A stretch of 64,000 nt of DNA. Origin: a virus (Duplodnaviria > Heunggongvirae > Uroviricota > Caudoviricetes). The stretch covers positions 25,703 through 89,702 of IMG/VR virus record IMGVR_UViG_3300048586_000134, one strand, 5' to 3'. Below are positions 46,610-60,789 of the stretch, piece after piece. Each line of letters starts with the position of its first letter. Within the stretch, counting starts at the first letter, position 1. The notes under the pieces were generated by a model, which was not told the origin of the DNA, searched no databases, and worked only from the letters and a program-made list of their open reading frames with translations. Made by a program: the position numbers and the translations under genes.

Positions 46610-46840
46610 CTAGAGTCCGATTGCCAGATTGATCGCTCGGACCATCGCAAACCAGACCAACTCGACCTCATGCATCGAAACTCCACGCATGTCGCGAATC
46701 TTCTTCTTTTCGTCCGCGACCGAAAGATCGATATTGATGACGTTCAGGTAGTCACCGCGCTTGCAGTAACGTTGGCGAACGCTCGCAAGTCTCGCAAGCT
46801 CGTCATACTTTCCTGACGCGCCGTATCCATCAACGATCAT
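46610..46840 (-). CDS. hypothetical protein
   Basis: 76-aa ORF. Confidence 0.4.
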   Translation of the reverse strand: MIVDGYGASGKYDELARLASVRQRYCKRGDYLNVINIDLSVADEKKKIRDMRGVSMHEVELVWFAMVRAINLAIGL

Positions 46841-47052
46841 GCGAACCTCCTATAGAAGATACCAGTCAAGTCGCCCATTGTCAACTCGACGGCCTCAACC
46901 AGTTGCGCTTTCAGCGCCTCCTCAACCTCGTCAAGATCGCGCCCGACCTCATCCTCGTCGGTCTTGTCTGGCGTCCCACGCTGCCGCAGGAACAACTCAG
47001 CCTCGAAGAGCATTTCCTCTTTCAGTTGCGAGATAATCCAATCAGGAATCAT
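46837..47052 (-). CDS. hypothetical acidic protein (start MIPDWII..)
   Basis: The internal Met abuts the neighbouring gene. Confidence 0.35.
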   Translation of the reverse strand: MIPDWIISQLKEEMLFEAELFLRQRGTPDKTDEDEVGRDLDEVEEALKAQLVEAVELTMGDLTGIFYRRFA

Positions 47053-47053
47053 G

Positions 47054-47239
47054 TTAGTCCTCCGCAGGGATCGTATCCCCGTATTCGTTGATGACCTTCT
47101 CGTACTCATCACCGATCAGCACATTGTCGATGTACGGATCGGCTTCCAGACTCTCGGCGTAATGATGCGCCTGATGGGTAGCGTCTGTCAAGTCCTTCGC
47201 CTCGACCGTCACCCACAACTGAAACACGTACTGTGGCAT
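47054..47239 (-). CDS. hypothetical protein
   Basis: 61-aa ORF. Confidence 0.35.
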   Translation of the reverse strand: MPQYVFQLWVTVEAKDLTDATHQAHHYAESLEADPYIDNVLIGDEYEKVINEYGDTIPAED

Positions 47240-47268
47240 GCTGTCCTCCTGTCTGCTAACCTGCCTCT

Positions 47269-47297
47269 ACTCTAGCAGGTTACTCCTCGCCTGTCAA
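47269..47297 (-). promoter_or_regulatory. array promoter TTGACA-17-TAGAGT (TGC extended -10)
   Basis: Read on the - strand. The -35 overlaps the last codons (..DYLTGEE) of gene 47280..47612. Confidence 0.55.
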
Positions 47298-47612
47298 GTA
47301 GTCGCCAGTGAAGTCAACCACGATCCTCGCGACTTGCGTACCCAGCGCATTCGTCTCGTATTCGAGAAACACTGGATACACCCCATCGCCTCCGAACCCT
47401 GAGACAACGATTGCCGTGTTGTTCCCATCGAACGGCTCGATGAAGTCGCCCTTGTGGTTGACTCCATCCCATGCATGCAAGACTCCATCGTAGGTAATCC
47501 CGCGCTCCGCTGGTGTGACATCGCCAAACCTGTTGTATGGGAGCGTGTAGCACGGATCACCAACCATGATCTGTCCCGAGTCCACGCCCACATACCCGAT
47601 ATGCTTCCGCAT
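47280..47612 (-). CDS. hypothetical protein
   Basis: 110-aa ORF. Confidence 0.45.
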   Translation of the reverse strand: MRKHIGYVGVDSGQIMVGDPCYTLPYNRFGDVTPAERGITYDGVLHAWDGVNHKGDFIEPFDGNNTAIVVSGFGGDGVYPVFLEYETNALGTQVARIVVDFTGDYLTGEE

Positions 47613-47613
47613 G

Positions 47614-47814
47614 TTAGTCCTCCACCAATCGTGTTACGAAGAAACCGTTGTCGTCGTACAGATTTTCGTCCTCTCCCTCGATTTCGTCTCCCATCTGCGC
47701 GGAGTAGCCCTTCATGGTTTCGTTGATCTGCGCCTCCAACGCCCACAAGTTTGCCGCCGCATCCTCTGGCGTTTCCGCCTCGGTCGTCACGAAGATACAT
47801 CCTGTGAATCGCAT
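47614..47814 (-). CDS. hypothetical acidic protein (start MRFTGC..)
   Basis: Internal Met with GAGGGG upstream. Confidence 0.35.
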   Translation of the reverse strand: MRFTGCIFVTTEAETPEDAAANLWALEAQINETMKGYSAQMGDEIEGEDENLYDDNGFFVTRLVED

Positions 47815-47825
47815 TGTCAACCCCT

Positions 47826-48413
47826 CTAGATGCTCAATCGCATCTGTGATAGTCCCAGCACGTCCAGCAACCAATCAGCCGCCGCATCGATGCGCTTCTC
47901 CACATCCAGCGGGTAAACAGGATTCATCCGCCGATCACGGCATGCATTGTGGTGAGCGATGTAGCCCATCGAACGCTTCACGCAAGCGAGTGAGAACTCC
48001 TGTCCCACGATAGCCGCAACCGACTCGGCCACGACTTCCATCATCAGCCCTTTTTTCTTTTCCTTCCCTCGCGGCCAGTTCTTACCAACCGTCTCGTACT
48101 CGAATGCGTGCACGGCCTCGTGCACCAGCGTCAGGAACTCGGAATTAGCGTGCTTGTTCGGCCTGATGAAAATGACCTTTGTATTCGGATTGCACCACCC
48201 GAGTGATGTTTTCCGTCCGCAGTCCTTCTCTTTCTGGATCGTCCATCCGCGCTTTTCCAGCACGTCAGCGAGTTTCCGCGTGGCCGCAAGAACCGCTCGA
48301 CTGGCTCCGACCACTGGCTCGTAATCCCAATTGTAGCGGTAGTGCACGCGACGTGTCTCAACCTCCACGCGTGCCTGCTGATCGAGTGTGTGCAACAGCG
48401 TCTTGTAGGTCAT
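47826..48413 (-). CDS. zincin-like metallopeptidase (HExxH)
   Basis: ..TLVHEAVHAFEYE.. is an HExxH motif. The ORF is 195 aa. Confidence 0.45.
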   Translation of the reverse strand: MTYKTLLHTLDQQARVEVETRRVHYRYNWDYEPVVGASRAVLAATRKLADVLEKRGWTIQKEKDCGRKTSLGWCNPNTKVIFIRPNKHANSEFLTLVHEAVHAFEYETVGKNWPRGKEKKKGLMMEVVAESVAAIVGQEFSLACVKRSMGYIAHHNACRDRRMNPVYPLDVEKRIDAAADWLLDVLGLSQMRLSI

Positions 48414-48447
48414 GATGCTTCCTCCATCGCTTCTCGAATCTGTTGCC

Positions 48448-48476
48448 AGTCTAGCAGGGAGTCAACTGCCTGTCAA
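48448..48476 (-). promoter_or_regulatory. array promoter TTGACA-17-TAGACT
   Basis: Read on the - strand, upstream of 47826..48413. Confidence 0.55.
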
Positions 48477-48495
48477 CTCCCTGCTGTTGCCTTCG

Positions 48496-48894
48496 CTACA
48501 GTGTGATCGTTTCCCGCTTCGCCAGATCGTAGATCGCGATTTCGCCGCGCTCACGTCCCGCGAGAAGCGCCTTGACGCGTCCCTTCGGCGTGTTCGGGAA
48601 GATCGTGACCGCATCTACATAGAGCGTATCACCATCGATCCAGCCGCCGAACCATTCAATGTTGCTCGGCTTCGGTGTCATCCAGACCGCCACCAGCGCA
48701 ATCGCGTCGTCAATTTGCGTGTCTCGTGAGATTTTGAGCGTCGGCGTGTTGAATGCGCTCCCAACCGCGAACCCCTCATCGGGAGCGTCCGCACCATACT
48801 GTCCAACCGTAGCGCCACCCGTTGCAAGCGTTCGCTCAACCAGCTTGGTTGCCGCTTGGATCGTCTGCTCGTAGGGGATGATCGACGTATTCAC
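48496..48894 (-). CDS. hypothetical protein
   Basis: 132-aa ORF. Confidence 0.45.
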   Translation of the reverse strand: MNTSIIPYEQTIQAATKLVERTLATGGATVGQYGADAPDEGFAVGSAFNTPTLKISRDTQIDDAIALVAVWMTPKPSNIEWFGGWIDGDTLYVDAVTIFPNTPKGRVKALLAGRERGEIAIYDLAKRETITL

Positions 48895-48940
48895 TTTGCT
48901 TTCTCCTCACTCTTGGCCGCTCATTGCCGCCACTGGAATG

Positions 48941-48969
48941 ACTATAGCAGGTTGTCTGTTGCTTGTCAA
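48941..48969 (-). promoter_or_regulatory. array promoter TTGACA-17-TATAGT
   Basis: Read on the - strand. The TAG stop of the upstream gene lies 4 nt from the -35. Confidence 0.6.
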
Positions 48970-48972
48970 GCC

Positions 48973-49323
48973 CTACGCATCAGGATCGTATGGGCCATAC
49001 TCCATGAAGTCGAAATAGGCTTCGATCAGCGCTGCCGCCGACTCTCGATATGCTCGCGGTTCATCGTCGCAGATTGTGGCGTTTGCGGCCTCTCGCATGT
49101 GCTGATACAGACGCGTCCCGAGTGCGTCACCCGTAGTCTCGATCAGCTTGTGTGCGGCCTCGTAACGATCCGCGTAGTGCGCATCCTCTGGTAGCGTGAG
49201 ATACACTTGGAAGTAGAGCGCGAACTCTTTGAGCGGGAGCCGCGTGCTGTACCACGCTCCATCAACGCCAACCACTTCCACGAAACCGTCCTCGGAAATG
49301 CGGTATTCCTCGCGCTTGCTCAT
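48973..49323 (-). CDS. hypothetical protein (start MSKREEY.., RBS GGAGGAA)
   Basis: 117-aa product. Confidence 0.45.
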   Translation of the reverse strand: MSKREEYRISEDGFVEVVGVDGAWYSTRLPLKEFALYFQVYLTLPEDAHYADRYEAAHKLIETTGDALGTRLYQHMREAANATICDDEPRAYRESAAALIEAYFDFMEYGPYDPDA

Positions 49324-49394
49324 CGGTTCCTCCAAATGGGCGAGACATAACTGCCTCGACGTGTCAGGCTGTACACAATCGCCAGCCAGTCCCT

Positions 49395-49423
49395 ACTGTA
49401 CACCGCGATCAGCTTGCCGTCAA
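49395..49423 (-). promoter_or_regulatory. array promoter TTGACG-17-TACAGT (GTG extended -10) followed by leader hairpin
   Basis: Read on the - strand. The leader contains GGCTG..CAGCC. Confidence 0.45.
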
Positions 49424-49579
49424 GCCAGACGCCGTAGTGCATGCTACCAACCACCGATGTCGTCCAGCCAAAGCTCGAAGTCCAGTTCATCGTCTGTCCA
49501 GCAGACTAGCACATCGCCGTTCCGCATGTCAAGCATGGCGTCCAGCATGTCGTAGTACCAGTCAACGATCCAGCCGTGT

Positions 49580-49837
49580 CTATTGAGAATGACCCACCAC
49601 ATTGTTTTGCTCCTTCAGTTTCGCGTAGAAGCGAGTCGCGTCAATCGCGTCCTTCAGCTTGTGCGCCTTGCGTAGCTCCGTGTCCGCGTCCTCGAAGTCG
49701 TGCAGATGTCCGAGTCGAATGATCGTATCGGGACCGTCCACGTAGAGCGTCACTTGATAGCAGCGCCCCATCGGAATGTAGGCGATTTCTCCAATCGCCC
49801 GATTGCCGTCCTTGACCACGTACACGCTTGGTTTCAC
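49580..49837 (-). CDS. hypothetical protein
   Basis: 85-aa ORF. Confidence 0.4.
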   Translation of the reverse strand: MKPSVYVVKDGNRAIGEIAYIPMGRCYQVTLYVDGPDTIIRLGHLHDFEDADTELRKAHKLKDAIDATRFYAKLKEQNNVVGHSQ

Positions 49838-50124
49838 TTCACCCCTCCACGACCATCGTACTCGATGATCTGCGGCTTGTCAAGCCCCTTGTTGCTGATG
49901 TAGTGCTTGATACCAGCCTGCACCAGCCGATACGCCTTGATCGCGCTCTTGCGTGCCTCTTCCAGCGGCTCACCGAGACTGACCAGCAGATCGTCGCTCT
50001 CGTTGTCCGTGCATGCGCACCAGACGATCCACTTTGTCGGATCGCTTTTCGACTTGCGTGCCTTGCCGACACGCTCAGCGCCGACGTAAAAGACCACGAT
50101 TTCCTGAATCTCCTGCTCGTTCAT
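49834..50124 (-). CDS. hypothetical protein
   Basis: 96-aa ORF. Confidence 0.4.
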   Translation of the reverse strand: MNEQEIQEIVVFYVGAERVGKARKSKSDPTKWIVWCACTDNESDDLLVSLGEPLEEARKSAIKAYRLVQAGIKHYISNKGLDKPQIIEYDGRGGVK

Positions 50125-50177
50125 GCCCTGTCCTTTCTGATTGACCAGCCCTCAGTGGTGCGGTACCACCCTCCTCG

Positions 50178-50206
50178 ATGATAGCAGCTTAGTTGCTCTC
50201 TGTCAA
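50178..50206 (-). promoter_or_regulatory. array promoter TTGACA-17-TATCAT
   Basis: Read on the - strand; overlaps the stop of the HNH gene. Confidence 0.55.
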
Positions 50207-50656
50207 GTGTTCGCATATCCCTCCGTTTCGTCGCTTGCTGTCGTTACAGTTTGCGCACAAGATTTGTAGCGTGTCAGGAAAGTCGTTTTTGATGATCCAG
50301 CGATATGTCTCACTCCCCGATGCTGACCGACGCTTTCCGTTGCTGATTTGCGCACGATGTTCATTACCGCCGCCCTCAATATGGTCGATGTGTAACATAG
50401 TCATCCGATGCTCACCACAACACGCACATTTATTTCCATAATGCTCGAATACTGTTGTCCGTAACTTTTCTCGATACCTCTTGTTTGCGTCCAGCTTATC
50501 AGCCGCATTGACAATCACTAAACAAGCCTGACACAACGATCCCTGTCTGTCAAGCGTCTTGCCACATTTCCCGCACAAGCCCTCCGCTCGTCGCTTGTGG
50601 TACGTCTGTCGTTGCCATGTCGCGCTGTACGTGTCAGATTTTATTTCTCTGCTCAT
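50189..50656 (-). CDS. HNH endonuclease
   Basis: ..MLHIDHIEGGGNEH..LQILCANCN.. is an HNH motif. N-terminal CxxC pairs are present. Confidence 0.7.
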   Translation of the reverse strand: MSREIKSDTYSATWQRQTYHKRRAEGLCGKCGKTLDRQGSLCQACLVIVNAADKLDANKRYREKLRTTVFEHYGNKCACCGEHRMTMLHIDHIEGGGNEHRAQISNGKRRSASGSETYRWIIKNDFPDTLQILCANCNDSKRRNGGICEHLTESN

Positions 50657-50733
50657 GTGTGCCTCCCGTACTGTAGAGACTACCCTATGCAGCCTCTACA
50701 GTACAGTAGCACCGACTACCGAATTAGTTTCCG

Positions 50734-50762
50734 TCCGTTCGGACGAACTCAGGACGGTTGAA
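50734..50762 (-). promoter_or_regulatory. TTGACA -35 with weak -10 (AGTTCG). Its long structured leader contains the 14-bp palindrome CGTCCGAACGGACG plus the hairpin TACTGTAGAG..CTCTACAGTA
   Basis: Read on the - strand, upstream of the HNH gene. May be a regulated promoter. Confidence 0.35.
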
Positions 50763-50778
50763 TGGTTGTCAAGTAGTC

Positions 50779-51090
50779 TTAGCGACACGTCCCATCTTCG
50801 TAGACCACGTACCCCGCTCGCTTCATTTTCGTAAAGTAGGTGCCGCTGAACGGGTAGACTCCATTCCTCGTGAGCGTCCGCTGATAGCCTGCACACGCTC
50901 CCGACCGTCGTACATACGTGCCGCGCTTGCTTCCCTCATCGCAGCCAGTCGCGTGCACAATCTGCGAATCCCTTACGCTCGTCTGTCCGTACCACCGCGC
51001 CCACATCAGGCACTCGCTCGACGCCGACGCGCTTCCACCATACCCGACGAACAGACTTGCCACGATTGCAATGATAACCACAAACCGCAT
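50779..51090 (-). CDS. small secreted Cys-rich protein (Sec signal peptide)
   Basis: MRFVVIIAIVASLFVGYGGSASA-SS.. with 6 Cys in the mature part. Confidence 0.45.
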   Translation of the reverse strand: MRFVVIIAIVASLFVGYGGSASASSECLMWARWYGQTSVRDSQIVHATGCDEGSKRGTYVRRSGACAGYQRTLTRNGVYPFSGTYFTKMKRAGYVVYEDGTCR

Positions 51091-51272
51091 TACCGCGCTA
51101 CCTCCTGCTGAATCCGTCGTGCCTTGTCCTCATTCCACACGATGCCGTGCCGAATCTGCTTGTTGCGCTTGTCTAGCTTGCGCTGCTCCTCCCGCTCACG
51201 CTCGATCCGTCGCCGTTCCGACTGCCGCTGCTGTCGTGCTCCCATGATACTTGCTCCTCTCGATCCTGTCAA
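51090..51272 (-). CDS. hypothetical Arg/Glu-rich basic protein
   Basis: 60-aa ORF. Its start overlaps the next promoter, so it is probably translated from the upstream transcript. Confidence 0.3.
   Translation of the reverse strand: MTGSRGASIMGARQQRQSERRRIEREREEQRKLDKRNKQIRHGIVWNEDKARRIQQEVAR
51244..51272 (-). promoter_or_regulatory. array promoter TTGACA-17-TATCAT
   Basis: Read on the - strand. Confidence 0.5.
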
Positions 51273-51282
51273 GTAGCGTCTG

Positions 51283-51612
51283 CTACGTGGTGGCGAAAAA
51301 CTTCTCGACCAGTGCTTCCAGATCGTCCCGCACGCTTACCAGCGTGCTGATGTATGCCTGTCGTGCGCTGTCGTTATCCTCCTCCTCTACGCCGTCCGTA
51401 ACCAGTGAGTCAAGACGATCTTTGATCGTGATGATGTCCCTGACTTCCTCAGTACTCACGGATGCCCGAACAGTCTTGATCGCCACCGCTCCGAGTGAGT
51501 CCTCGACTTCGTATTCCGCCTCTCTCACGGCTTGCTTTGCGGCATCCTCCTTGTCTGTCGCCCAAACCGTGTGCAAGCTGTCTTGTCGTACTGTAACCTT
51601 GAACCACTCCAT
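51283..51612 (-). CDS. hypothetical acidic protein
   Basis: 109-aa ORF. Confidence 0.4.
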   Translation of the reverse strand: MEWFKVTVRQDSLHTVWATDKEDAAKQAVREAEYEVEDSLGAVAIKTVRASVSTEEVRDIITIKDRLDSLVTDGVEEEDNDSARQAYISTLVSVRDDLEALVEKFFATT

Positions 51613-51619
51613 CTGTCAA
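51590..51619 (-). promoter_or_regulatory. promoter-like TTGACA-18-TACAGT
   Basis: Read on the - strand. It overlaps the annotated ATG of 51283..51612, so either the start or the promoter call is wrong. Confidence 0.3.
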
Positions 51620-51638
51620 GCCTCCTCAGTAGCCGTAG

Positions 51639-51896
51639 CTACACATCGAACTTACGGTCGAATCGATCAGCGGCCTCGGCCTCGTACAGTTCATCTTGGA
51701 AACTCTCGTCAATGTCAAGCACGTCTGCCTCGTAGTGCTTGCTTGCCGCGTCCGAGAGTGTGCGAAGAAAACTTTGCACTGCCTCCTCGACGGTTTCCGC
51801 CACTACATCGAAGTTGACGTAATATCGGTTCATGTCGTTACTCCTTCTCGACCAGACCGTAGCCGTGGATATCCGCGAGTGCCAGCAGAAGCGCAA
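51639..51896 (-). CDS. hypothetical acidic protein
   Basis: 85-aa ORF. Confidence 0.4.
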   Translation of the reverse strand: MRFCWHSRISTATVWSRRSNDMNRYYVNFDVVAETVEEAVQSFLRTLSDAASKHYEADVLDIDESFQDELYEAEAADRFDRKFDV

Positions 51897-52067: not shown

Positions 52068-52598
52068 TCAGTCCTCCACTCCATCGAACATGCTGCTAGG
52101 ATAGCACACTCGGCATCCTTCGTCAAGCCACTCCTCATAGTATTCCAGCGGCTCGTCGCATTCGCTACATGTCGGCCAGTTCTCGATGATCGCTTGCCGT
52201 GCATACTCGTAGGCCAGTTGTTGCGCGTCACTGATCCATCGGTCAATGTCGCCGTAGCTTTGCCCATCCTCGCACAACTCATTCATCAGAACCGCGTGCT
52301 TGATGTTCTCGGCCAGCCAGCCAGTCAGCGCCAGCGTTTCGTAATCGGAGTCAGGAAGTACCATGTCCGCGATTTCGTCAGGACCGTTGAGACCGTTCAC
52401 CGCCGCGTCTGAAAGAAGTTCATGAACGTACTCGTATGCCGTATCCTCGTTCATGTTTTCCGCTGCCGCTCGCACCATTTCGCTCAGTGGCGTTTGTTGT
52501 GCGTGATCCCGCAGAAACCAGATGCGCTTGCCTGCACTCGTTACGCGAGTGTCGAACATGTTGCTCATTGCCTCGGTGATCGTGACCAGATCGCCCAT
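52068..52598 (-). CDS. hypothetical acidic protein (start MGDLVTI.., RBS GGAGG)
   Basis: The start lies downstream of the promoter at 52644-52672. Confidence 0.45.
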   Translation of the reverse strand: MGDLVTITEAMSNMFDTRVTSAGKRIWFLRDHAQQTPLSEMVRAAAENMNEDTAYEYVHELLSDAAVNGLNGPDEIADMVLPDSDYETLALTGWLAENIKHAVLMNELCEDGQSYGDIDRWISDAQQLAYEYARQAIIENWPTCSECDEPLEYYEEWLDEGCRVCYPSSMFDGVED

Positions 52599-52672: not shown

Positions 52673-52682
52673 GTAGCCGCCG

Positions 52683-54937: not shown

Positions 54938-54960
54938 CGTGTCGCTCCTCACTTGTGACT

Positions 54961-54989: not shown

Positions 54990-55138
54990 GTGTTTGCTAC
55001 GATTCGATGCTCCTCAGTGTAGCCGCCGCTACGCTTGATGTCGATGTAAACGCGTGCGGTTTCGAGTGTGACGCAGCGTGCCAGCGGATCAGGCACCCAA
55101 TGACCGCGTGTGAAGTACTCAACCCTGAACGTCTGCAT
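54986..55138 (-). CDS. small hypothetical protein (50 aa; start MQTFRVEY..)
   Basis: RBS AAGGGAGCACGATC precedes the ATG, downstream of the promoter at 55193-55221. Confidence 0.35.
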   Translation of the reverse strand: MQTFRVEYFTRGHWVPDPLARCVTLETARVYIDIKRSGGYTEEHRIVANT

Positions 55139-55192
55139 GATCGTGCTCCCTTGCTTGTGGTGACCAACCCTCGTTGGTGCCGTACAGTCCTC

Positions 55193-55221
55193 ACTATACG
55201 GCACGGACGAATGTTTGTCAA
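55193..55221 (-). promoter_or_regulatory. array promoter TTGACA-17-TATAGT followed by leader hairpin
   Basis: Read on the - strand. Confidence 0.55.
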
Positions 55222-55229
55222 GCCCCTCG

Positions 55230-55970
55230 TTAGTAGCCGAAGATACCAAGATGTGACTCAAAGTAGCCGTGCTGAATCTGCCACATCGCCCACTGTAGCA
55301 CGAATGGCCGATACCCGTTCTGTCGCGCCCACTCGACCAGCGTAGCCTCAAGCATGCGATAGGGCACTTTGTTGACCGTCATGCTTGTCGCCGTGATGCC
55401 ACCCACGAACGATTGTAGCATCCTCAGCATGTGCACGTCAAGTGTGAACACATCGGCGTCACCGTTGAACAAGGCAACCGCCATTGCCGCCGTTTTCTCG
55501 CCCACGTTCCGCAACTTTCCTTGTTTCTTTAGGGCCAGTAGGTTATCCTTCGTCATATCCTCTGGCTCAATGTTGCGGATCGTGTCAAGCGATGTGAAGA
55601 TACCGCGTGCAGCCCCGCCAGCCGTCACCCATGACATCGCGCCGTCGTTCGTCAGGATACGGTAGACATCATCGACCGTCTCGAAGTTGTCATACAACCG
55701 ATCCATGATCCTGCGAGTCGCCGCGACATTGTGACCGAACCAGCATTGCGGTGATATTATCGCGAACACCAGCGACGTTTGAGCGTGCAGTATCGCGTCC
55801 TGTTCTCGCAGTGCATCCATGACTGCCACTTCAGCCGCGATTGCATCCACGTTCGCGTCAATCTCTGGCTTGATGCGTTCCATGTGATTGTTCAGCACCA
55901 GCAGGATACGTGCCGCATCCTCAGCCTTGACCGTGTAGGATGCCTGATCGTGATTGCTAACGCTCGCCAT
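55230..55970 (-). CDS. HhH-GPD superfamily DNA glycosylase (endonuclease III-like)
   Basis: Helix-hairpin-helix plus catalytic Asp: ..LRNVGEKTAAMAVALFNGDADVFTLDVHMLRML.. Start corrected to MASVSNH. Confidence 0.5.
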   Translation of the reverse strand: MASVSNHDQASYTVKAEDAARILLVLNNHMERIKPEIDANVDAIAAEVAVMDALREQDAILHAQTSLVFAIISPQCWFGHNVAATRRIMDRLYDNFETVDDVYRILTNDGAMSWVTAGGAARGIFTSLDTIRNIEPEDMTKDNLLALKKQGKLRNVGEKTAAMAVALFNGDADVFTLDVHMLRMLQSFVGGITATSMTVNKVPYRMLEATLVEWARQNGYRPFVLQWAMWQIQHGYFESHLGIFGY

Positions 55971-56016
55971 GTCTGTACCCTTCCTCGTTCGTGCCAGCCC
56001 ATCGCTGACACTCTCA

Positions 56017-56045
56017 CTATCGCACATCCTCAGCAGGTTGTCAAG
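56017..56045 (-). promoter_or_regulatory. array promoter TTGACA-17-GATAGT
   Basis: Read on the - strand. Confidence 0.5.
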
Positions 56046-56061
56046 TGCTCGTTTGTCGTTT

Positions 56062-56187
56062 GCGCTACAACCCTCCTGCCAGCCAGCCCACTAGTATCAC
56101 CAGCCCATACAACACGCTCGGCACCACCACCCAAGCGATGTTCTGATTGCGAGTCCACTTTTTCGGCGGATAGTGCTTCATGATCGG
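56062..56187 (-). CDS. small membrane protein (~42 aa, below track cutoff)
   Basis: Hand-translated as MAPIMKHYPPKKWTRNQNIAWVVVPSVLYGLVILVGWLAGGL. Confidence 0.3.
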
Positions 56188-56214
56188 TGCCATTGCCTCT
56201 CCTCGCTTGTGTCT

Positions 56215-56243
56215 ACTCTACCAGCCTGTCAAGCGTTTGTCAA
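56215..56243 (-). promoter_or_regulatory. array promoter TTGACA-17-TAGAGT (two overlapping TTGACA hexamers)
   Basis: Read on the - strand. Confidence 0.5.
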
Positions 56244-56344
56244 CCCGCACCGCAGATGCTCAGGACCGTAGCAACTATCACCCACAAGAGAATGAAGATT
56301 GCCGCACCAGTGAGAAGATACCCGATACGCTGTCCGATGCTCAT
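56240..56344 (-). CDS. small membrane protein (~34 aa, below track cutoff)
   Basis: Hand-translated as MSIGQRIGYLLTGAAIFILLWVIVATVLSICGAG. Its TGA stop overlaps the next -35. Confidence 0.3.
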   Translation of the reverse strand: MSIGQRIGYLLTGAAIFILLWVIVATVLSICGAG

Positions 56345-56375
56345 TGCATCCTCCCTGTCTCGCTACCGTGCCACC

Positions 56376-56404
56376 ACTCTAGCACGGTAGCGCCGTCTTG
56401 TCAA
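56376..56404 (-). promoter_or_regulatory. array promoter TTGACA-17-TAGAGT
   Basis: Read on the - strand. An upstream GTAGCGGCGACTAC hairpin carries the TAG stop of 56415..56741. Confidence 0.6.
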
Positions 56405-56414
56405 GTAGTCGCCG

Positions 56415-56741
56415 CTACTCGATCCAAACGACCTTCGCGGGAATGCTCCAATCAATCGCGTCTGCCAGTTGATAGAGCCGCTGTCCCTGTACGATCACCT
56501 GAAAGTGATTGATGAGTGCCGCCGTGTAGTCCGTGCGACTGAATGGCACATACTTCGCGTTTAGGTCAACCGTCCCGATGCAATCCTCAATCGTCCCGCG
56601 TATCGCGGCCAGCGTCTTCCCTCGCTTGACATCGTTATCGTAGCTAAATGAATTGATACCCTTCAGGTTGTCCAGCACGTCCTCGAAGTGCACGATAGCG
56701 TCCGCGAGAATGTCGTTACCGAACAATTGATCGACCGTCAT
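56415..56741 (-). CDS. hypothetical protein
   Basis: 108-aa ORF. Confidence 0.45.
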   Translation of the reverse strand: MTVDQLFGNDILADAIVHFEDVLDNLKGINSFSYDNDVKRGKTLAAIRGTIEDCIGTVDLNAKYVPFSRTDYTAALINHFQVIVQGQRLYQLADAIDWSIPAKVVWIE

Positions 56742-56786
56742 GACCGTTCTCCCTCGCTAGTGGCACCGTCTCTCGATGCCACTAGC

Positions 56787-56815
56787 ACTGTACCAGACTG
56801 CCAAACGTTTGTCAA
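56787..56815 (-). promoter_or_regulatory. array promoter TTGACA-17-TACAGT followed by leader hairpin
   Basis: Read on the - strand. The leader contains GCTAGTGGCA..TGCCACTAGC. Confidence 0.6.
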
Positions 56816-56825
56816 GTAGTCCGTG

Positions 56826-57104
56826 CTACGGATGCAGTGGCAGCACCACCGTGTCCGTATCGTGTGCATTCCCGCGCTCGTCCGTCGCGACCGTCATGAG
56901 CGTGTACATCGTGGCGTCCACATTATTACGCCACATACAATACCGCAACACCGTATCCTCGCCCACGACTTCGCTGATGTTGACCCCGATCACTTCCTTA
57001 TTGTCAATCAGCAACCTGCCCATGTCCAGCGCCGTTGTGCGTGACTGCAAGAGAACGGGAAACGCGTGCGGCTTGTCCTTGACCATCACGATAACCTGAT
57101 ACAT
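56826..57104 (-). CDS. hypothetical protein
   Basis: 92-aa ORF. Confidence 0.45.
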   Translation of the reverse strand: MYQVIVMVKDKPHAFPVLLQSRTTALDMGRLLIDNKEVIGVNISEVVGEDTVLRYCMWRNNVDATMYTLMTVATDERGNAHDTDTVVLPLHP

Positions 57105-57140
57105 GGTGCCTCTCCTCGCTTGTCTCGCTCGACTGTTACC

Positions 57141-57169
57141 ACTCTACCAGACACGGATCAGATTGTCAA
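57141..57169 (-). promoter_or_regulatory. array promoter TTGACA-17-TAGAGT
   Basis: Read on the - strand. Confidence 0.55.
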
Positions 57170-57439
57170 TGCCTCGCTTGTCGCGTTCGCTACATCGAAT
57201 GTCGTTTGCAGCGCCAGCGTCCGACCGTCGCACGTCGTCACGTATTCCCACATGACGCCCGTATTTTCGTGCGAGTCGCGATACAGTTGACGGACCCGAT
57301 GTTCACCCTCGTAAAGTATCGCGCCGTCACAATCGGGAGATGCCACCACCATTTTCGCCAGCGTGGTAGCCGCCGCTACCGTGTCCACATCGAACCGCAT
57401 CAGGCTACCCGACTTGCTGCGAACGTCCACCGTAATCAT
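57158..57439 (-). CDS. hypothetical protein (start MITVDVRSK..)
   Basis: RBS GAGGGAGTGCGGTC precedes the ATG. Confidence 0.45.
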   Translation of the reverse strand: MITVDVRSKSGSLMRFDVDTVAAATTLAKMVVASPDCDGAILYEGEHRVRQLYRDSHENTGVMWEYVTTCDGRTLALQTTFDVANATSEALTI

Positions 57440-57476
57440 GACCGCACTCCCTCGCTTGCTTGCCTCGACTGTCACC

Positions 57477-57505
57477 ATTCTAGCAGGTTGCTTGTCGGTT
57501 GTCAA
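57477..57505 (-). promoter_or_regulatory. array promoter TTGACA-17-TAGAAT
   Basis: Read on the - strand. Confidence 0.55.
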
Positions 57506-57852
57506 CCCCCAATCTGTAGCCTGCACGACAGTCGCATATCAGCCAGTGCGTACATCGCACGTCCGAACTCGCTCACGCATGGTAGCGGAAGATACGCGTC
57601 TCGACCGTCCTTCTTGATGCCGACAATCCACGCCAGCGGAATAAATGTCTGCTCGTAATAGACTACTATACCTAGGTGGCCGTCGTGTGTCGCGCCGACA
57701 CTTTGCTCCTTGATGAAATCCTTACTCACGTCAAACAAATCGCTCAGCTTTTCTTTTGCCTCGTCAATGGCCGTGTACTCGTCCCGTAGTCGATCCTCGC
57801 TGAATGATGCCGCGCCAACAAAGTGCAGTTTACCGTCTTTCCAGTTGACCAT
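57502..57852 (-). CDS. hypothetical protein (start MVNWKDGK..)
   Basis: RBS GGGAGAACGGTC precedes the ATG. Confidence 0.45.
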   Translation of the reverse strand: MVNWKDGKLHFVGAASFSEDRLRDEYTAIDEAKEKLSDLFDVSKDFIKEQSVGATHDGHLGIVVYYEQTFIPLAWIVGIKKDGRDAYLPLPCVSEFGRAMYALADMRLSCRLQIGG

Positions 57853-57895
57853 GACCGTTCTCCCTTGTGAGTGCAGCCCCGACTTGACTGCACTC

Positions 57896-57924
57896 ACTCT
57901 ACCATGCCTGAATCCCGTTGTCAA
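57896..57924 (-). promoter_or_regulatory. array promoter TTGACA-17-TAGAGT followed by leader hairpin
   Basis: Read on the - strand. The leader contains GAGTGCAG..CTGCACTC. Confidence 0.6.
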
Positions 57925-57934
57925 GTAGTCCGTG

Positions 57935-58141
57935 CTACTTGACTTTCACGATCACGCCGTCTTTCAGTTCCACTTCAGCGTACCACTTGTGGTATTCAGC
58001 AGGGCCAGAAATAAACTCCCTGCCATTGCGCGGTGGAGCCTGAAAGAGATAGTAACTCTCGTCAAGTACCACGCGCTCGCCCTTCGCGACCGCTTCCTTG
58101 AATGCCTTCTTGCTCTTGAAGTCAGGAATGATGTGCGCCAT
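57935..58141 (-). CDS. hypothetical protein
   Basis: 68-aa ORF preceded by GGGAGAACGATC. Confidence 0.45.
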   Translation of the reverse strand: MAHIIPDFKSKKAFKEAVAKGERVVLDESYYLFQAPPRNGREFISGPAEYHKWYAEVELKDGVIVKVK

Positions 58142-58188
58142 GATCGTTCTCCCTTGTGTGAGTGTGACCGTCCCTCGACCACACTCAC

Positions 58189-58217
58189 ACTATACCATGC
58201 TGCCAGCCAGTTGTCAA
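58189..58217 (-). promoter_or_regulatory. array promoter TTGACA-17-TATAGT followed by 11-bp-stem leader hairpin
   Basis: Read on the - strand. The leader contains GTGTGAGTGTG..CACACTCACAC. Confidence 0.6.
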
Positions 58218-58222
58218 GTAGC

Positions 58223-58762
58223 CTAGGCGACAATCTCCTCCACGTCTGCCGCCGTTGGAGCCTTACCCCATGCGGGTATCGGTACATAGGTCACACTATA
58301 GCCACCGCTCGACCGTGACACAAGCACCGCGTCCCGCCAGATATAGGCCAGTTGGTAGCCCTTGCTACGCAGCGTGGCAATCGAACGCTTGTTCCACACT
58401 ATCGTGCCGTCATCCTGCACGTCCCGACGCGGAATGCTCAACCATGCCACCGCATCGCCCGTAGGTTGCCCACGCTCATCCCATGCGCTTGTGACCAGCC
58501 ACTTAGGTCCGTACCGTGTCTCCACAATCTTACACGGTACAGGATTGCCTGTCAAGTCCACCAGACCCTCGAAATCGTAGCGTCCGTTACTTTCGGCCAG
58601 TGTCGCCGCCAGATCGTATGCGCGGGCCATTGTGTCGCTCGCCCACTGCGAGAGAAAACCGTCAGTATCAGACCGCTCGAAAGAATCCTCGGACGACTTC
58701 CGCGATGCGCGTGCCATTGCGCGGAACTCATCAGCCGTGTGATCGATCTTGATGACGCTCAT
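58223..58762 (-). CDS. hypothetical protein
   Basis: 179-aa ORF. Confidence 0.45.
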   Translation of the reverse strand: MSVIKIDHTADEFRAMARASRKSSEDSFERSDTDGFLSQWASDTMARAYDLAATLAESNGRYDFEGLVDLTGNPVPCKIVETRYGPKWLVTSAWDERGQPTGDAVAWLSIPRRDVQDDGTIVWNKRSIATLRSKGYQLAYIWRDAVLVSRSSGGYSVTYVPIPAWGKAPTAADVEEIVA

Positions 58763-58806
58763 TGAGATTCTCCCCGCTAGTGCAGCCGTCCCTCGACTGC
58801 ACTAGC

Positions 58807-58835
58807 ATCATAGCACGTCCGACCGTCCCTGTCAA
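58807..58835 (-). promoter_or_regulatory. array promoter TTGACA-17-TATGAT followed by leader hairpin
   Basis: Read on the - strand. The leader contains GCTAGTGCAG..CTGCACTAGC. Confidence 0.6.
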
Positions 58836-58845
58836 GTAGTCGCCG

Positions 58846-59217
58846 CTACACCGCGTATTGCTTGCCCCAATTCCATGACGGCTCACCCTCGTTCTCGTTG
58901 CGCGTGAACTCCTGAATGAAGCGGCGATCACCGCTCACATTGTAGGTTGCCAGCACGAAACCGTCATGTGTGTTGTCGATGATGCGACCGCCGCAATCGT
59001 TGTCCGTGGCATAGCGTACACCATACCGCGTCATGGTGTCAAGCGCATCGGAGTAGTCCTTGCTACCCTTGATCGTGGCGATGACGCGTGGCGTGCCATT
59101 CTCCCAGCGGTTGAACTCGACTACGAAACACTCGCACACGAGATAGTTTGCCGCGTCAAGTGTCTGGCCGCAACCTTCGCAGAATCCCATGACCGTCCTC
59201 CCTTGTGGCGTAGCCAA
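58846..59217 (-). CDS. hypothetical Cys-containing protein
   Basis: 123-aa ORF. Confidence 0.45.
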   Translation of the reverse strand: MATPQGRTVMGFCEGCGQTLDAANYLVCECFVVEFNRWENGTPRVIATIKGSKDYSDALDTMTRYGVRYATDNDCGGRIIDNTHDGFVLATYNVSGDRRFIQEFTRNENEGEPSWNWGKQYAV

Positions 59218-59232
59218 CTCGACTACGCCACT

Positions 59233-59261
59233 ACTCTACCACGTCCGACCGATGCTGTCAA
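59233..59261 (-). promoter_or_regulatory. array promoter TTGACA-17-TAGAGT
   Basis: Read on the - strand. Confidence 0.6.
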
Positions 59262-59271
59262 GTAGTCTCGA

Positions 59272-59604
59272 CTACCAGCGGATCGCCCCGCGCTCAGCCC
59301 CGCGACCGCCGTTCTCATCCGCCCACGCGTTCCAGTGATCGCGATAGTTGATGATCGTATCAAAGTCAAGCGGTCGCCGCATGCACTGAATGGGCCGATA
59401 CTTATAGTCCACAAGTTTGCCGTTCGATGCGCGATAGGTGACGTATGGCTCATCCGTTCGCCATATCCGCGTTATGAACGATCCCGCTTTGAGCATAGCA
59501 TATGCTTGTGGCAGTGTCAAGCCGTCAATCGTTCGGCGGATGTGACCCTGATTCTCGACCGCCAGCACCACGGACGCCGCGTACATACCCTGAGCCTTCT
59601 TCAC
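59272..59604 (-). CDS. hypothetical protein (probable GTG start within conserved GGAGAACGGTC-GTG block)
   Basis: The track ORF start lies upstream of the promoter. The conserved RBS/start block places the start at a GTG. Confidence 0.4.
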   Translation of the reverse strand: MKKAQGMYAASVVLAVENQGHIRRTIDGLTLPQAYAMLKAGSFITRIWRTDEPYVTYRASNGKLVDYKYRPIQCMRRPLDFDTIINYRDHWNAWADENGGRGAERGAIRW

Positions 59605-59646
59605 GACCGTTCTCCTTCGTGGCACGATCCCGATTGACCGTGCCAC

Positions 59647-59675
59647 CACTTTACCACCGTTCCGACCGTCTGTCA
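59647..59675 (-). promoter_or_regulatory. array promoter TTGACA-17-TAAAGT
   Basis: Read on the - strand. Confidence 0.5.
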
Positions 59676-59701
59676 AGTCCCCAGCGTAGCGCCGACTACT
59701 T

Positions 59702-59821
59702 TCGTGCATTCTTTTCCTTCACGAGACAAACTTCGCACAGTTCGGGATTCTCGCGAGTGCACCCACACGAGCCGCACTCCACACACGCGAGATTGTCAAG
59801 ATCGACCGTGCTCATGATCCT
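59702..59821 (-). CDS. small zinc-finger protein (39 aa, below track cutoff)
   Basis: Hand-translated as MSTVDLDNLACVECGSCGCTRENPELCEVCLVKEKNARK. The TAG stop lies inside the GTAGTCGGCGCTAC hairpin. Confidence 0.35.
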
Positions 59822-59875
59822 ACTCCCTGCTAACTATCCCTGAGCGACCATCGCTCATTGGTGGGCTACGTGAGT

Positions 59876-59904
59876 AGCATAGCCCACGGATGAGAGATTG
59901 TCAA
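59876..59904 (-). promoter_or_regulatory. array promoter TTGACA-17-TATGCT followed by leader hairpin
   Basis: Read on the - strand. The leader contains GAGCGATGGTCGCTC. Confidence 0.55.
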
Positions 59905-59923
59905 GACCCTAGTGTAGCGCCGA

Positions 59924-60185
59924 CTACTTCGACAATTCTTCCAGCCGATTTTGAGCACGCATCGCCGCCGACTGATAGTAATAGGCCCGAATAATTGCCA
60001 TGCCGCGCTCGACCGTCACCTGAGCGAGCATGTGTATCTCAGTGAGTGCCATATTTTCGTTCGCGTTGAATACGAAAAGCCGCATTTTGCCCGTATTTTC
60101 GTCAATTTGAACGCGGCCTACTGGTTCGCCACCGAATCCCTTGACGCGGATAACTTTCTCAGTGTCAAGAATCGTGCCAGACATT
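59924..60185 (-). CDS. hypothetical protein (start MSGTILD.., RBS GGGAGG)
   Basis: The upstream part of the track ORF contains the promoter. Confidence 0.45.
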
Positions 60186-60239
60186 GCGCGTGCCTCCCGT
60201 TTGTTCGTGTGAGTGACCATCACTCTCGATTGTGCTAGC

Positions 60240-60268
60240 ATGCTAGCACAATGGGGAACGATTGTCAA
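60240..60268 (-). promoter_or_regulatory. array promoter TTGACA-17-TAGCAT overlapping the 20-bp perfect palindrome TGTGCTAGCATGCTAGCACA
   Basis: Read on the - strand. A leader hairpin GAGTGATGGTCACTC follows. Confidence 0.6.
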
Positions 60269-60287
60269 GTGCCAAGTGTAGCGCCGA

Positions 60288-60458
60288 CTACGCGAGTCGT
60301 GCATGCTCGCCGCGATTCGCGGAGTAGAGTGCCAGCGTAATGCCGACATACTTTCGGCGCAGAAAGTTTAGGACGTTCTCGGCTTCGTCGCGCCGCGTGC
60401 CATTGTGGAGAATCGCATCGGGAGAAAAGTTTTCACCGATAACCACATGGTACGTCAT
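60288..60458 (-). CDS. small hypothetical protein (start MTYHVVIGE..)
   Basis: RBS AGGAG precedes the ATG. It is the last gene of the leftward array. Confidence 0.4.
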   Translation of the reverse strand: MTYHVVIGENFSPDAILHNGTRRDEAENVLNFLRRKYVGITLALYSANRGEHARLA

Positions 60459-60516
60459 GACCAGACTCCTGACTAGAACGGATGTGCGAGTGACCATCAC
60501 TCTCACTAACGCTACC

Positions 60517-60545
60517 AGTGTAGCACTAGTGAGAATGATTGTCAA
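60517..60545 (-). promoter_or_regulatory. array promoter TTGACA-17-TACACT followed by leader hairpin
   Basis: Read on the - strand. It is the outermost promoter of the leftward array. The leader contains GAGAGTGATGGTCACTCG. Confidence 0.55.
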
Positions 60546-60789
60546 GTCTCTTGCGAGACTCGCATCATTCCCGATGGTAGCTTGCGCTACCGTAGGAAGA
60601 TGGTCCTATCTGTCAACTAGGACCATTGCGCTATTCGATGTCACGTTCTTCTTGTGTACGTTCGCCTTCGTTTCGATAGCCAGAGCCGTTATGTTGGCTA
60701 CCACGAACGTACACTCAGAGCGTCAACACTCCAGAGCGCTAAGTTGTCAATGTGCCCATAGAGTCAGCTAAGCGTCCCTCAGTAGTCCG

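Follow-up and report, generated by a model that had tools for sequence, protein, structure and literature searches.

The window analysed here, a stretch of 64,000 nucleotides (nt) from the IMG/VR record IMGVR_UViG_3300048586_000134, derives from an uncultivated tailed phage of ~128 kb, two of its proteins being 100% identical to proteins on a 127,895-bp contig of the Joint Genome Institute (JGI). All genes from ~61 kb down to ~6 kb lie on the minus strand, and within this block, between positions 52596 and 60570, 20 consecutive junction cassettes in gaps of 46–108 nt separate 21 small open reading frames (ORFs) of unknown function. In contrast, gaps at 5.6–45 kb are mostly overlaps or shorter than 20 nt. 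The minus-strand block also encodes a family A DNA polymerase, an AEP primase, a DnaB-type helicase, a class II ribonucleotide reductase and NAMPT, with further matches to ThyX, SSB, ERF, endonuclease VII, a PD-(D/E)XK nuclease and a PNKP-type phosphatase domain, while a tail protein and an endolysin (Amidase_2 plus glucosaminidase) are among the plus-strand genes at 1–5.6 kb. A megablast search of the region against GenBank phages gave no match, and tblastn with the polymerase and the primase returned only matches of ≤30% identity, the best polymerase matches to known phages being at ~30%. A second sample contains the same phage (L210, 99.98% identity) and gives no divergence information.

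Four modules recur at the junctions, namely a stop-codon palindrome (A), a promoter (B), a leader hairpin (C) and a ribosome site (D), and they are combined as a mosaic without a single fixed unit. A palindrome is present at 13 junctions and a hairpin of ≤ −10 kcal/mol at 17; palindrome, TGn extension of the −10 box and hairpin (≤ −8 kcal/mol) occur together at six only, and five junctions resemble deletion derivatives without the 3′ hairpin arm. The sequence-only reading from which this work started had counted about 27 cassettes of one grammar, each with a leader stem-loop. Its count is close to the 29 junction promoters described below, and its stem-loops agree with the folding and covariation results; the uniformity does not hold, since only 17 of the 29 junctions have a hairpin of that stability and six the full combination. 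The same reading had suggested a covariance model of the cassette. Built on the half from the −10 box through hairpin and Shine-Dalgarno (SD) sequence to ATG, the model recovered 14 copies at E < 0.01, all within 52.6–59.7 kb, with no copy elsewhere in the window and none in an unrelated phage contig, L097 (IMGVR_UViG_3300037147_000102).

The pattern TTGACA-N16-19-TAnnnT occurs 58 times in the window, always on the minus strand, against 1.4 expected, and a generic consensus scan of 44–64 kb found 59 promoter-like sites versus 12.3 ± 3.5. All 29 junction promoters at 46.8–60.6 kb (minus strand) carry an exact TTGACA, for which about 26 had been claimed; 27 have a 17-nt spacer and 20 the TGn that had been described as usual. 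The −10 box is mostly TAGAGT, TACAGT or TATAGT, with the consensus TAnAGT followed by G in 16 of 23 profiled cassettes. Promoters of the same type run on leftward to ~5 kb and are also present within ORFs, where early ORFs contain four copies of TTGACA-N16-18-TAnnnT compared with 0.25 in synonymous-codon shuffles (0 of 1,000 shuffles reach 4); a codon-usage artefact was rejected on this basis. Conservation of the promoters is seen in L114, a relative with 82.4% identity to the window over 6.75 kb. Across eight promoters 92 of 96 hexamer positions are kept, whereas spacers drift to as low as 9/17, and the few changes in −10 boxes all preserve TAnnnT. The promoters thus look like real promoters of the host sigma-70/sigma-A type; their function can only be inferred, yet the comparative signal is strong. 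Terminator-like sites in the 44–64 kb scan number 12 versus 13.5 expected, with none at the cassettes, and read-through transcription is therefore expected.

Complete intragenic promoters (TTGACA-17/18-TAnnnT) lie at 59520, 59042, 58555, 51962, 49532 and other positions. That at 58555 is kept in the 45%-identical homologue on L126, a contig from a more distant relative.

The palindrome GTAG-N6-CTAC (14 bp) is present in 22 copies against ~1 expected, 21 of them in 49.4–60.9 kb, and copies abutting TTGACA (≤1 mismatch) number 11 versus 0.02 expected. Its TAG is the stop codon of the upstream ORF in 13 of 13 junction copies, as had been proposed, and TAG closes 21 of 37 early ORFs compared with 23 of 72 ORFs elsewhere. 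The motif itself stands as first described except that its spacer, given as N4-6, is always N6, and the distance of the TAG to the −35 box, given as typically 9–25 nt, takes two forms: nine junction palindromes abut the −35 and four sit exactly 9 nt upstream of it. Degenerate palindromes (GTAGCGAACGCrAC, CTAC-TAG-GGGC) occupy several other junctions. Three further ORFs stop in the TGA inside TTGACA, and since ORFs end either there or in the TAG of the palindrome, the cassette supplies stops in two frames.

It had also been claimed that the stop codon lies in an RNA hairpin, which could act as a terminator, an attenuator or a translation-termination signal of the upstream gene. Stems can indeed be predicted, mostly of 4–5 bp and up to 8 bp, at −2.6 to −10.6 kcal/mol; the invariable in-frame TAG at junctions would fit such a role, and the stem-loops of the promoter-early-stem-loop (PeSL) cassettes of T4-type phages are terminators (PMC2839356). 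It is sequence and not pairing that is conserved, however. The GTAG and CTAC tetranucleotides are invariant, positions 5/10 are Y/R without covariation (8 of the 22 copies show a C..A mismatch), and pairing at 6/9 is seen in only three of 22. No U-tract follows the palindrome, and terminator-like sites are at chance level. Copies within ORFs (57379, i.e. 57366..57379; 58368; 59066; 55032) fall in non-stop frames. The 14-mer GTAGCGGCGGCTAC, for example, forms the stop-codon palindrome at 52686 and recurs inside ORFs at 57379 and 55032 in two different frames, and the copy at 59066 sits 10 nt upstream of the full intragenic promoter at 59042. In L097 (4091–9325), which has no protein similarity to the window, a palindrome of the type GTAGATACATCTAC (variants one to three bases off) abuts TTGACA at seven junctions, although only about half of the copies have a TAG that ends a long upstream ORF. 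This lineage is therefore not alone in having a palindrome next to the −35 boxes of its repeated early promoters. The RNA-hairpin explanation appears improbable.

With half-sites of 4–5 bp (GTAGY), a total length of 14 bp and a position at −49 to −36 or another 9 bp upstream, the palindrome has the geometry of an operator for a dimeric helix-turn-helix protein. GTAG-N6-CTAC is thus most likely a putative operator for a dimeric DNA-binding protein that would modulate or shut off the early promoters. The sole recognisable DNA-binding regulator found in the window, a candidate only, is a LexA-type protein of 100 aa (39697..39999, minus strand) with a winged-helix DNA-binding domain and no peptidase domain (Pfam LexA_DNA_bind 29 bits, cut-off 23.7; PDB 1lea, E 5.6e-4). 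Inspection alone led to the rejection of CIRCE/HrcA, the half-sites of which are in inverse order, and of the direct repeats of CtsR, which do not match.

A host regulator was considered as well. The canonical NtcA promoter reportedly has GTA-N8-TAC near −42, ~22–23 nt upstream of TAN3T, and the nine abutting copies, with GTA-N8-TAC-N23-TAnnnT, share the outer trinucleotides and this spacing; GTA-N8-TAC occurs 34 times versus 13.6 expected. The array might then consist of class II, activator-dependent promoters of a cyanobacterial host, served by an NtcA-type activator of the CRP/FNR family. The motif is narrower than an NtcA box, however, with G4 and C11 in 22 of 34 copies as against 1/16 by chance, and the −35 boxes here are perfect while NtcA-type promoters lack them. 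Four copies are displaced 9 nt upstream and eight are not at promoters. Strong use of SD sequences would be unusual for cyanobacteria, and the endolysin, with its Amidase_2 and glucosaminidase domains, gives no pointer to a cyanobacterial host. This explanation is very improbable. A genome scan for the host seeded with the endolysin yielded a single uninformative 3-kb contig of a metagenome-assembled genome.

For eight leader hairpins the folding energies are −20 to −25 kcal/mol and the z scores −5.3 to −7.1, and 0 of 200 shuffles fold as well. For covariation, 15 leaders from three lineages were aligned (ten from the window, four from L126 and one from L208, another distant relative). The inner helix is 89.7% paired across the 15, with changes on both sides in five of eight pairs, and the covariation score is 0.407 compared with 0.25 in shuffles (0 of 500 reach 0.407); when the 3′ partner was slid by one to three columns as a control, pairing fell to 27–45%. 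The tip, GGTC-RA-N2-4-G-GRCC, is conserved in sequence across the three lineages. By this comparative evidence the leader stem-loop is a selected structure. No known RNA family was recognised (0 Rfam matches in the window at gathering score), and an intrinsic terminator was rejected: the hairpins are succeeded by CACAAGGGAG, which is not a U-tract, and terminator-like sites are not enriched.

The inverted repeats could in principle act as DNA, as operators for a repressor over +1. They overlap −10 to +25, where repressors commonly act, the repeat brackets the −10 box in cassettes 1–3 and in L126, and the tip is conserved in sequence. Against this, the stems vary in sequence from cassette to cassette, with compensatory changes; G·U pairs are tolerated (at one pair, 9 of 15 sequences have U-G) and the loop varies from 5 to 7 nt, which together indicate an RNA rather than a duplex-DNA site, the loop variation fitting a dimeric DNA site of fixed spacing poorly. 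We regard a DNA operator in the leader as decidedly improbable.

The hairpin stems begin within or right after the −10 hexamer, at positions that still covary; pairing at +1 to +6 after the hexamer is present in 7–10 of 12 cassettes, and +2 to +4 and +6 show two to four pair types. If transcription starts at the usual 6–8 nt after the −10 box, a cassette's own transcript would begin with a flush 5′ hairpin of 7–9 bp, and the full stem of 12–15 bp would form only in read-through RNA. Because the outer pairs covary, the full stem must matter; on read-through transcripts it could serve for processing, attenuation or insulation, alternatives that are indistinguishable here.

The ribosome site has the form AGGGAG-N7-ATG or, more fully, CACAAG-GGAG, a conserved spacer of 7–8 nt (often AACGGTC) and ATG. 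The SD context CGAGGGAG is repeated in the common hairpin loop CGAGGGA. With one GGA in the hairpin loop and one in the SD, a CsrA-type geometry is a speculative possibility. Behind a TTGACA-N17-TAnAGT promoter, GGGAG-NN-CG-N-TCATG is found five times against 0 expected, in keeping with the conserved string and spacing noticed at the outset. ACGGTC, which occurs in 52590–60600 21 times on the minus and three times on the plus strand (~3 expected), is found in promoter spacers, hairpin arms and SD–ATG spacers and also inside ORFs in several frames.

The 20 cassettes of the core zone, all on the minus strand, are numbered here from 60.5 kb leftward. Cassette 1 (60456..60545) has TTGACA-17-TGcTACACT with an inverted repeat spanning the −10 box, the hairpin GAGAGTGATGGTCACTC, the SD AGGAG and an ATG at 60458. 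Cassettes 2–4 share GTAGTCGGCGCTAC followed by 9 nt and TTGACA-17. In cassette 2 (60182..60291; TAG of GTAGTCGGCGCTAC as upstream stop) the −10 is TGcTAGCAT at the centre of a perfect 24-nt palindrome, followed by a short hairpin, GGGAGG and ATG 60184. Cassette 3 (59813..59927) has TATGCT with the repeat GTGGGCTA..TAGCCCAC over it, the hairpin GAGCGATGGTCGCTC and ATG 59815, and cassette 4 (59602..59699) has TGgTAAAGT, an 11-bp leader stem (−20.7 kcal/mol, z −5.7) and GGAGAACGGTC-GTG at 59604.

In the next four cassettes the palindrome abuts TTGACA-17. These are cassette 5 (59188..59275), with GTAGTCGAGACTAC, TGgTAGAGT, a hairpin of −20.3 kcal/mol (z −5.7) and GGGAGGACGGTC-ATG at 59190; cassette 6 (58760..58849), with GTAGCGGCGACTAC, TGcTATGAT, a 13-bp hairpin with the loop AGGGA (−24.1, z −7.1), GGGGAG and ATG 58762; cassette 7 (58139..58225), with CCTAGGCTAC, TGgTATAGT, a 15-bp hairpin GTGTGAGTGTGGTCG-AGGGA-CGGTCACACTCACAC (−22.7, z −5.3) and GGGAGAACGATC-ATG at 58141; and cassette 8 (57850..57938), with GTAGCACGGACTAC, TGgTAGAGT, a hairpin of −21.6 (z −6.1) and GGGAGAACGGTC-ATG at 57852. 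Cassette 11 (56739..56829) repeats GTAGCACGGACTAC and GGGAGAACGGTC around TTGACA-17-TGgTACAGT and a 14-bp hairpin (−24.4, z −6.3), with ATG 56741. Cassette 12 (56342..56418) repeats GTAGCGGCGACTAC against TTGACA-17-TGcTAGAGT and has AGGGAGG and ATG 56344 without a hairpin.

Reduced forms lie among these. The upstream ORF stops in the TGA of TTGACA in cassette 9 (57437..57505; −10 TGcTAGAAT, GGGAGTGCGGTC-ATG at 57439), a deletion derivative that misses the 3′ hairpin arm and is still found by the covariance model (E 2.7e-4), and likewise in two minimal cassettes, 13 (56191..56243; TGgTAGAGT, 21-nt leader, GAGGAG, ATG 56193) and 16 (54935..54989; TGaTACAGT, 23-nt leader, GAGGAG, ATG 54937). In cassette 10 (57102..57169; TGgTAGAGT, GAGGAG, ATG 57104) the promoter overlaps the upstream ORF end and the hairpin is lacking.

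The remaining cassettes vary chiefly in the palindrome. Cassettes 14 (55968..56067) and 18 (53858..53955) have the degenerate forms GTAGCGCAAACGAC and GTAGCGAACGCAAC, the former with TTGACA-17-TGcGATAGT, an 8-bp hairpin and ATG 55970, the latter with TTGACA-17-TAACAT, a 13-bp hairpin (−24.7, z −5.8), GAGGAG and ATG 53860. Cassette 15 (55136..55246) reads GTATCTTCGGCTAC-TAA…GGGGC-TTGACA-17-TATAGT, followed by a hairpin and GGGAGCACGATC-ATG at 55138, and cassette 17 (54607..54688) reads CTAC-TAG-GGGC-TTGACA-17-TGgTACAGT, with the short hairpin GGTGGTC-GAGG-GACCAC and GGGAGAACATCA-ATG at 54609. In cassette 19 (53139..53227) GTAGCGGTCACTAC abuts TTGACA-18-TACAGT, with a 12-bp hairpin (−19.8, z −6.5) and GGGAGTGCGATC-ATG at 53141, and in cassette 20 (52596..52686) GTAGCGGCGGCTAC abuts TTGACA-17-TACAGT, with an 8-bp hairpin and GGAGGACAATC-ATG at 52598.

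At 46.8–52 kb the promoter part alone persists. This looser zone (46838..51642, minus strand) has nine more exact TTGACA-17/18-TAnnnT promoters, at 51619, 51272, 50206, 49883, 48969, 48476, 47820, 47297 and 46884, often overlapping ORF ends or starts, and only two stop-codon palindromes (51642, 51286). The promoters alternate with translationally coupled junctions, so that the proposal that each ORF is an autonomous unit would apply at about 20 junctions and not to the coupled genes further left. The second junction type, seen at 47054, 47614, 51838 and 52068 (minus strand), is GGAGGAC-TAA-C-ATG or GGAGGAC-TGA-AC-ATG, in which the last codons of the upstream ORF contain the SD, and SD and ATG are separated by the stop codon; from this layout the predicted arrangement is translational coupling without a promoter. 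At 51244–51272 the start codon of a 51-aa ORF overlaps the −10 box (TATCATG) and its SD lies within the promoter spacer; this ORF would therefore be translatable only from read-through RNA, with the promoter serving the next gene. An HNH-endonuclease gene (50189–50790) breaks into the array with a different junction, in which GTCGCTAAGACTAC-TTGACA lacks a usable −10 and is followed by GTAGTCGGTGCTAC and, ahead of the SD, by an 8-bp hairpin CTGTAGAG…CTCTACAG.

The ORFs between the cassettes do not account for the repetition. No similarity was detectable among the 42 ORFs of 44.4–60.5 kb, a Pfam batch scan of 37 of them gave no match below E = 1e-3, and ten of the larger ORFs returned only a few PHROG matches of unknown function and the HNH endonuclease. 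As the ORFs are mutually unrelated, the repetition reflects neither gene duplication nor codon-usage-driven coding sequence; the former was rejected as a source of the repeats, and the latter had been named in the sequence-only reading as what would undo the cassette.

Relatives were sought in a database of 5.8 billion protein clusters, and few were present. L115 (98%) and L114 (81%) overlap the region at its left edge; L126/L127 and L208 are more distant, at 45% and 47% protein identity. Samples that contain relatives are JGI 3300048587 and 3300012988, SRR33375158, SRR28521186, SRR27947056 and ERZ27311759. Protein-seeded IMG/VR scans with two early proteins found no relatives, a profile of the family of g58762 (the gene behind cassette 6) retrieved 80 IMG/VR loci of which none had the cassette grammar, and cassette DNA patterns gave only single chance matches in IMG/VR and JGI metagenomes, save for the unrelated L097.

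The distant relatives keep the grammar. L126/L127 and L208 have the TAG stop within GTA-N8-TAC (GTAGCACAAGCTAC, GTAGTTCACGCTAC), then 9 nt, TTGACA-N17-TAnnnT, a hairpin that shares the tip seen in the window, CACAAGAGAGG and ATG. Gene content and order differ. L126 has the order g57852-like, g58762-like, novel gene, g54609-like, compared with g58762, g58141, g57852, eight further genes and g54609 in the window; g57852 and g58762 are reversed, and the g54609-like gene lies two genes after the g58762-like one instead of eleven. Between the g54609-like and g51090-like anchors L208 has three small genes, the window eight or nine. In L115, which is 98% identical, three genes stand in place of one 71-aa gene. 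The homology ends exactly at GGAGGACTAAC-ATG on one side and, on the other, at the start codon that follows, and the incoming module carries its own TTGACA-17-TACACT promoter. Cassette subtype and ORF have also been re-assorted: the L126 cassette before the g58762 homologue is of the subtype seen in the window at 60545, 60268 and 59904 and not of the subtype of g58762 itself.

Taken together, we read the stretch as an early hyperplastic region of the host-takeover type in which standardised junction cassettes of ~50–110 nt lie between small orphan genes, and put the probability of this reading at roughly 0.65. In the mechanism proposed, the cassette would end the upstream ORF with its own stop (the TAG of GTAG-N6-CTAC or, in another frame, the TGA inside TTGACA), and its near-consensus extended −10 promoter would recruit host sigma-70/sigma-A RNA polymerase. 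The mRNA would start inside the conserved stem-loop, the flush 5′ hairpin of ~7–9 bp serving as a stabiliser or insulator, while in read-through transcripts the full hairpin would be a site of processing or attenuation. The unit would be completed by a strong and accessible SD (AGGGAG) at a constant distance of 7–8 nt from the start codon. With these four functions supplied by the cassette, every ORF would be an early unit that is strongly expressed whatever its context. Short conserved strings, the same at either border of an ORF, would in addition provide homology for recombination, probably via the ERF and exonuclease proteins of the phage, and ORFs could therefore be gained, lost and reordered as modules. 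Candidates for such machinery are an ERF-family single-strand annealing protein (35300..35965, minus strand) and a PD-(D/E)XK nuclease (16206–16997), together with SSB and endonuclease VII, matches from the batch scan; these proteins would give the phage its own short-homology recombination machinery, of the kind that can use such short homologies.

The array might instead be purely regulatory, without a role in shuffling, each junction having been selected to the same optimum of consensus promoter, stable leader and strong ribosome site, some having arisen by local duplication, and the differences in gene order having arisen by ordinary illegitimate recombination. In favour of this, non-consensus positions are just 34% identical between cassettes (0.34 versus a background of 0.26), even the best cassette pairs reach only 65–77% identity over ~100 nt, and dense arrays of consensus promoters exist in unrelated phages. 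On the other side stand the L115 break points exactly at SD/ATG, the re-assortment of subtype and ORF between L126 and the window, and identical strings without apparent constraint within sub-families (GTAGTCGGCGCTAC three times, GTAGCACGGACTACTTGACAA twice). Neighbouring cassettes are also significantly more alike at non-consensus positions (0.387 versus 0.338; 39 of 10,000 permutations, p ~0.004). We consider the purely regulatory alternative a serious but unlikely one.

The unrelated arrays are on three other IMG/VR phage contigs, L217 (IMGVR_UViG_3300024268_000077; 17 consensus sigma-70 promoters in 15 kb, 34% G+C), L078 and L105, all without the palindrome of this cassette.

Several points nevertheless count against the cassette reading as a whole or in part. 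Much of the similarity between cassettes is explained simply by selection towards a regulatory optimum. Given the modest identity between cassettes and longest shared strings of ~15–21 nt, inter-cassette recombination is plausible but unproven, and the comparison set is small, consisting of short contigs of 2–8 kb from three relatives. Recognition of a sigma-70 type is deduced from the consensus alone. Since the expected +1 falls downstream of the outer stem, the covariation of that stem is not explained by a simple 5′ stabiliser. The four palindromes within ORFs lie away from promoters, that at 59066 apart, and nothing ties the LexA-like protein to the palindrome.

The closest known arrangement is that of the PeSLs, which comprise a stop codon, an AT-rich tract, a near-perfect sigma-70 promoter, a stem-loop at one of five positions (among them over and downstream of the −10 box), an SD and a start codon (PMC2839356), and cluster in hyperplastic regions around ORFans of the T4-type phages RB49/phi1, PST and nt-1 (Arbiol et al., 2010, PMC2839356; Comeau et al., 2014, PMC4122927). 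The array shares with them the stop codon, the near-consensus TTGACA-N17 promoter, a stem-loop over or downstream of the −10 box (repeats spanning it in cassettes 1–3), SD and start, and the setting, a hyperplastic region of small genes without Pfam matches or paralogs in which ORFs are gained, lost and reordered between relatives (L126, L208 and L115 all differ). The phage is not a T4-type myovirus; it is unrelated, with a family A polymerase, an AEP primase, a DnaB-type helicase, an ERF recombinase and a G+C content of 52–57%. A GC-rich 14-bp stop-codon palindrome stands upstream of the −35 where PeSLs have an AT-rich tract, and the extended TGnTAnAGT box, the conserved hairpin tip without polyG/polyC and the conserved SD-to-ATG spacer are further differences. 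Terminator activity of PeSL stem-loops and mini-circles from inter-PeSL recombination have been demonstrated (PMC2839356, PMC4122927), whereas the present array is known from its sequence alone. The analogy drawn in the sequence-only reading therefore stands for architecture and evolutionary setting and not for membership, and the best reading is that of putative PeSL-like cassettes in an unrelated phage. The feature is real and striking, and is largely explained by comparison with known PeSL-type systems.

Other systems resemble single aspects. In the account of SPO1's module for host takeover given in PMC6873191 (after Stewart et al., 1998), 26 genes are arranged in multi-gene operons; small early genes beside a genome control region, with strong promoters and ribosome sites read by the host polymerase, are common to both, whereas here ~20 consecutive genes each have their own cassette with a shared leader structure and palindrome, and there is no protein homology to the module as described there. 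According to work cited in PMC3997798 (Emory 1992; Hambraeus 2002; Agaisse 1996), 5′ stem-loops plus ribosome binding stabilise mRNA. As in the ompA, papA and aprE leaders and STAB-SD covered by that source, a hairpin at or near the 5′ end is followed by a strong SD, and the loop CGAGGGA repeats the SD context as a STAB-SD would; the differences, compared with that summary, are the outer half-stem upstream of the expected +1 and the ~14 repeats with a conserved tip.

Intercistronic RNase III sites are present in the T7 early region, their stems containing internal loops. For SP82 early mRNA such sites are cited in PMC4838370 (Panganiban and Whiteley, 1983). To the extent of that citation, the likeness lies in conserved stem-loops between early cistrons on read-through transcripts; stems here are 11–15 bp without the internal loops of T7, each has its own promoter, and cleavage would be putative.

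The stoperators of cluster A mycobacteriophages are 13-bp asymmetric sites in one orientation, bound by a monomeric repressor (PMC6550527, PMC9283540). They too are many copies of a short motif at gene ends and gaps of the early region, some overlapping an early promoter, but the palindrome is symmetric and 14 bp long, and no immunity repressor was identified in the window. Integron gene cassettes, in which a promoterless ORF is joined to an imperfect inverted-repeat attC site and served by a tyrosine integrase, differ in that every unit here has its own promoter and the palindrome measures 14 bp; no integrase family turned up in Pfam scans of the window proteins. It is nonetheless conceivable, if rather improbable, that the palindrome is the site of a phage-encoded dimeric protein with two roles, shut-off of the array in a stoperator-like manner and marking of ORF borders for targeted cassette exchange. 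If true, a lytic phage would possess an integron-like means of capturing and expressing orphan genes, in which the leader hairpin would serve as an inbuilt insulator of expression.

If the preferred reading of PeSL-like cassettes is correct, standardised promoter–leader–ribosome-site cassettes bounding orphan genes are not confined to T4-type phages and have arisen convergently in an unrelated uncultivated lineage, which would strengthen the idea of dedicated phage "expression sockets" for trying out new genes. In addition, the array offers a library, made by nature, of ~20 strong promoters and 5′ leaders that are matched and graded by the presence of hairpin, TGn and palindrome, and the contribution of each module is therefore directly testable. 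Two conserved parts are without an assigned factor, the stop-codon palindrome (0 or 9 nt from the −35) and the hairpin tip GGTC-RA…GRCC.

Upstream of the first early gene lie ~2.7 kb without ORFs (60600–63333). They contain perfect DnaA boxes TTATCCACA at 62885–62893 and 62790–62798 (minus strand) with two near-matches, alternating purine-pyrimidine repeats CGCGCATACGCACGCG at 61.5–61.8 and 62.2 kb, and four GTCTCTAGT iterons at 63.10–63.20 kb. TTGACA promoters at 61376, 61275 and 61089 have no ORF behind them for ~600 nt. By these motifs the region looks like an origin or control region and may encode a non-coding RNA. The divergent gene at 63334–63999 (plus strand) is a homologue of TROVE-domain proteins (Ro60/Rsr; Pfam 67.9 bits). 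In the non-coding region beside it Rfam found no Y RNA, 60.4–63.4 kb giving only chance-level miRNA matches (E up to 1), and no tRNAs were found in the window. Together with the PNKP-type phosphatase domain and an RlaP-like gene that matches weakly, below the Pfam cut-off, the TROVE homologue suggests a putative RNA-repair/Ro set. Finally, G+C content is higher at 46000–60000 (0.545–0.57) than at 6000–46000 (~0.48–0.54), and GC skew is more negative there than in the replication-gene region.

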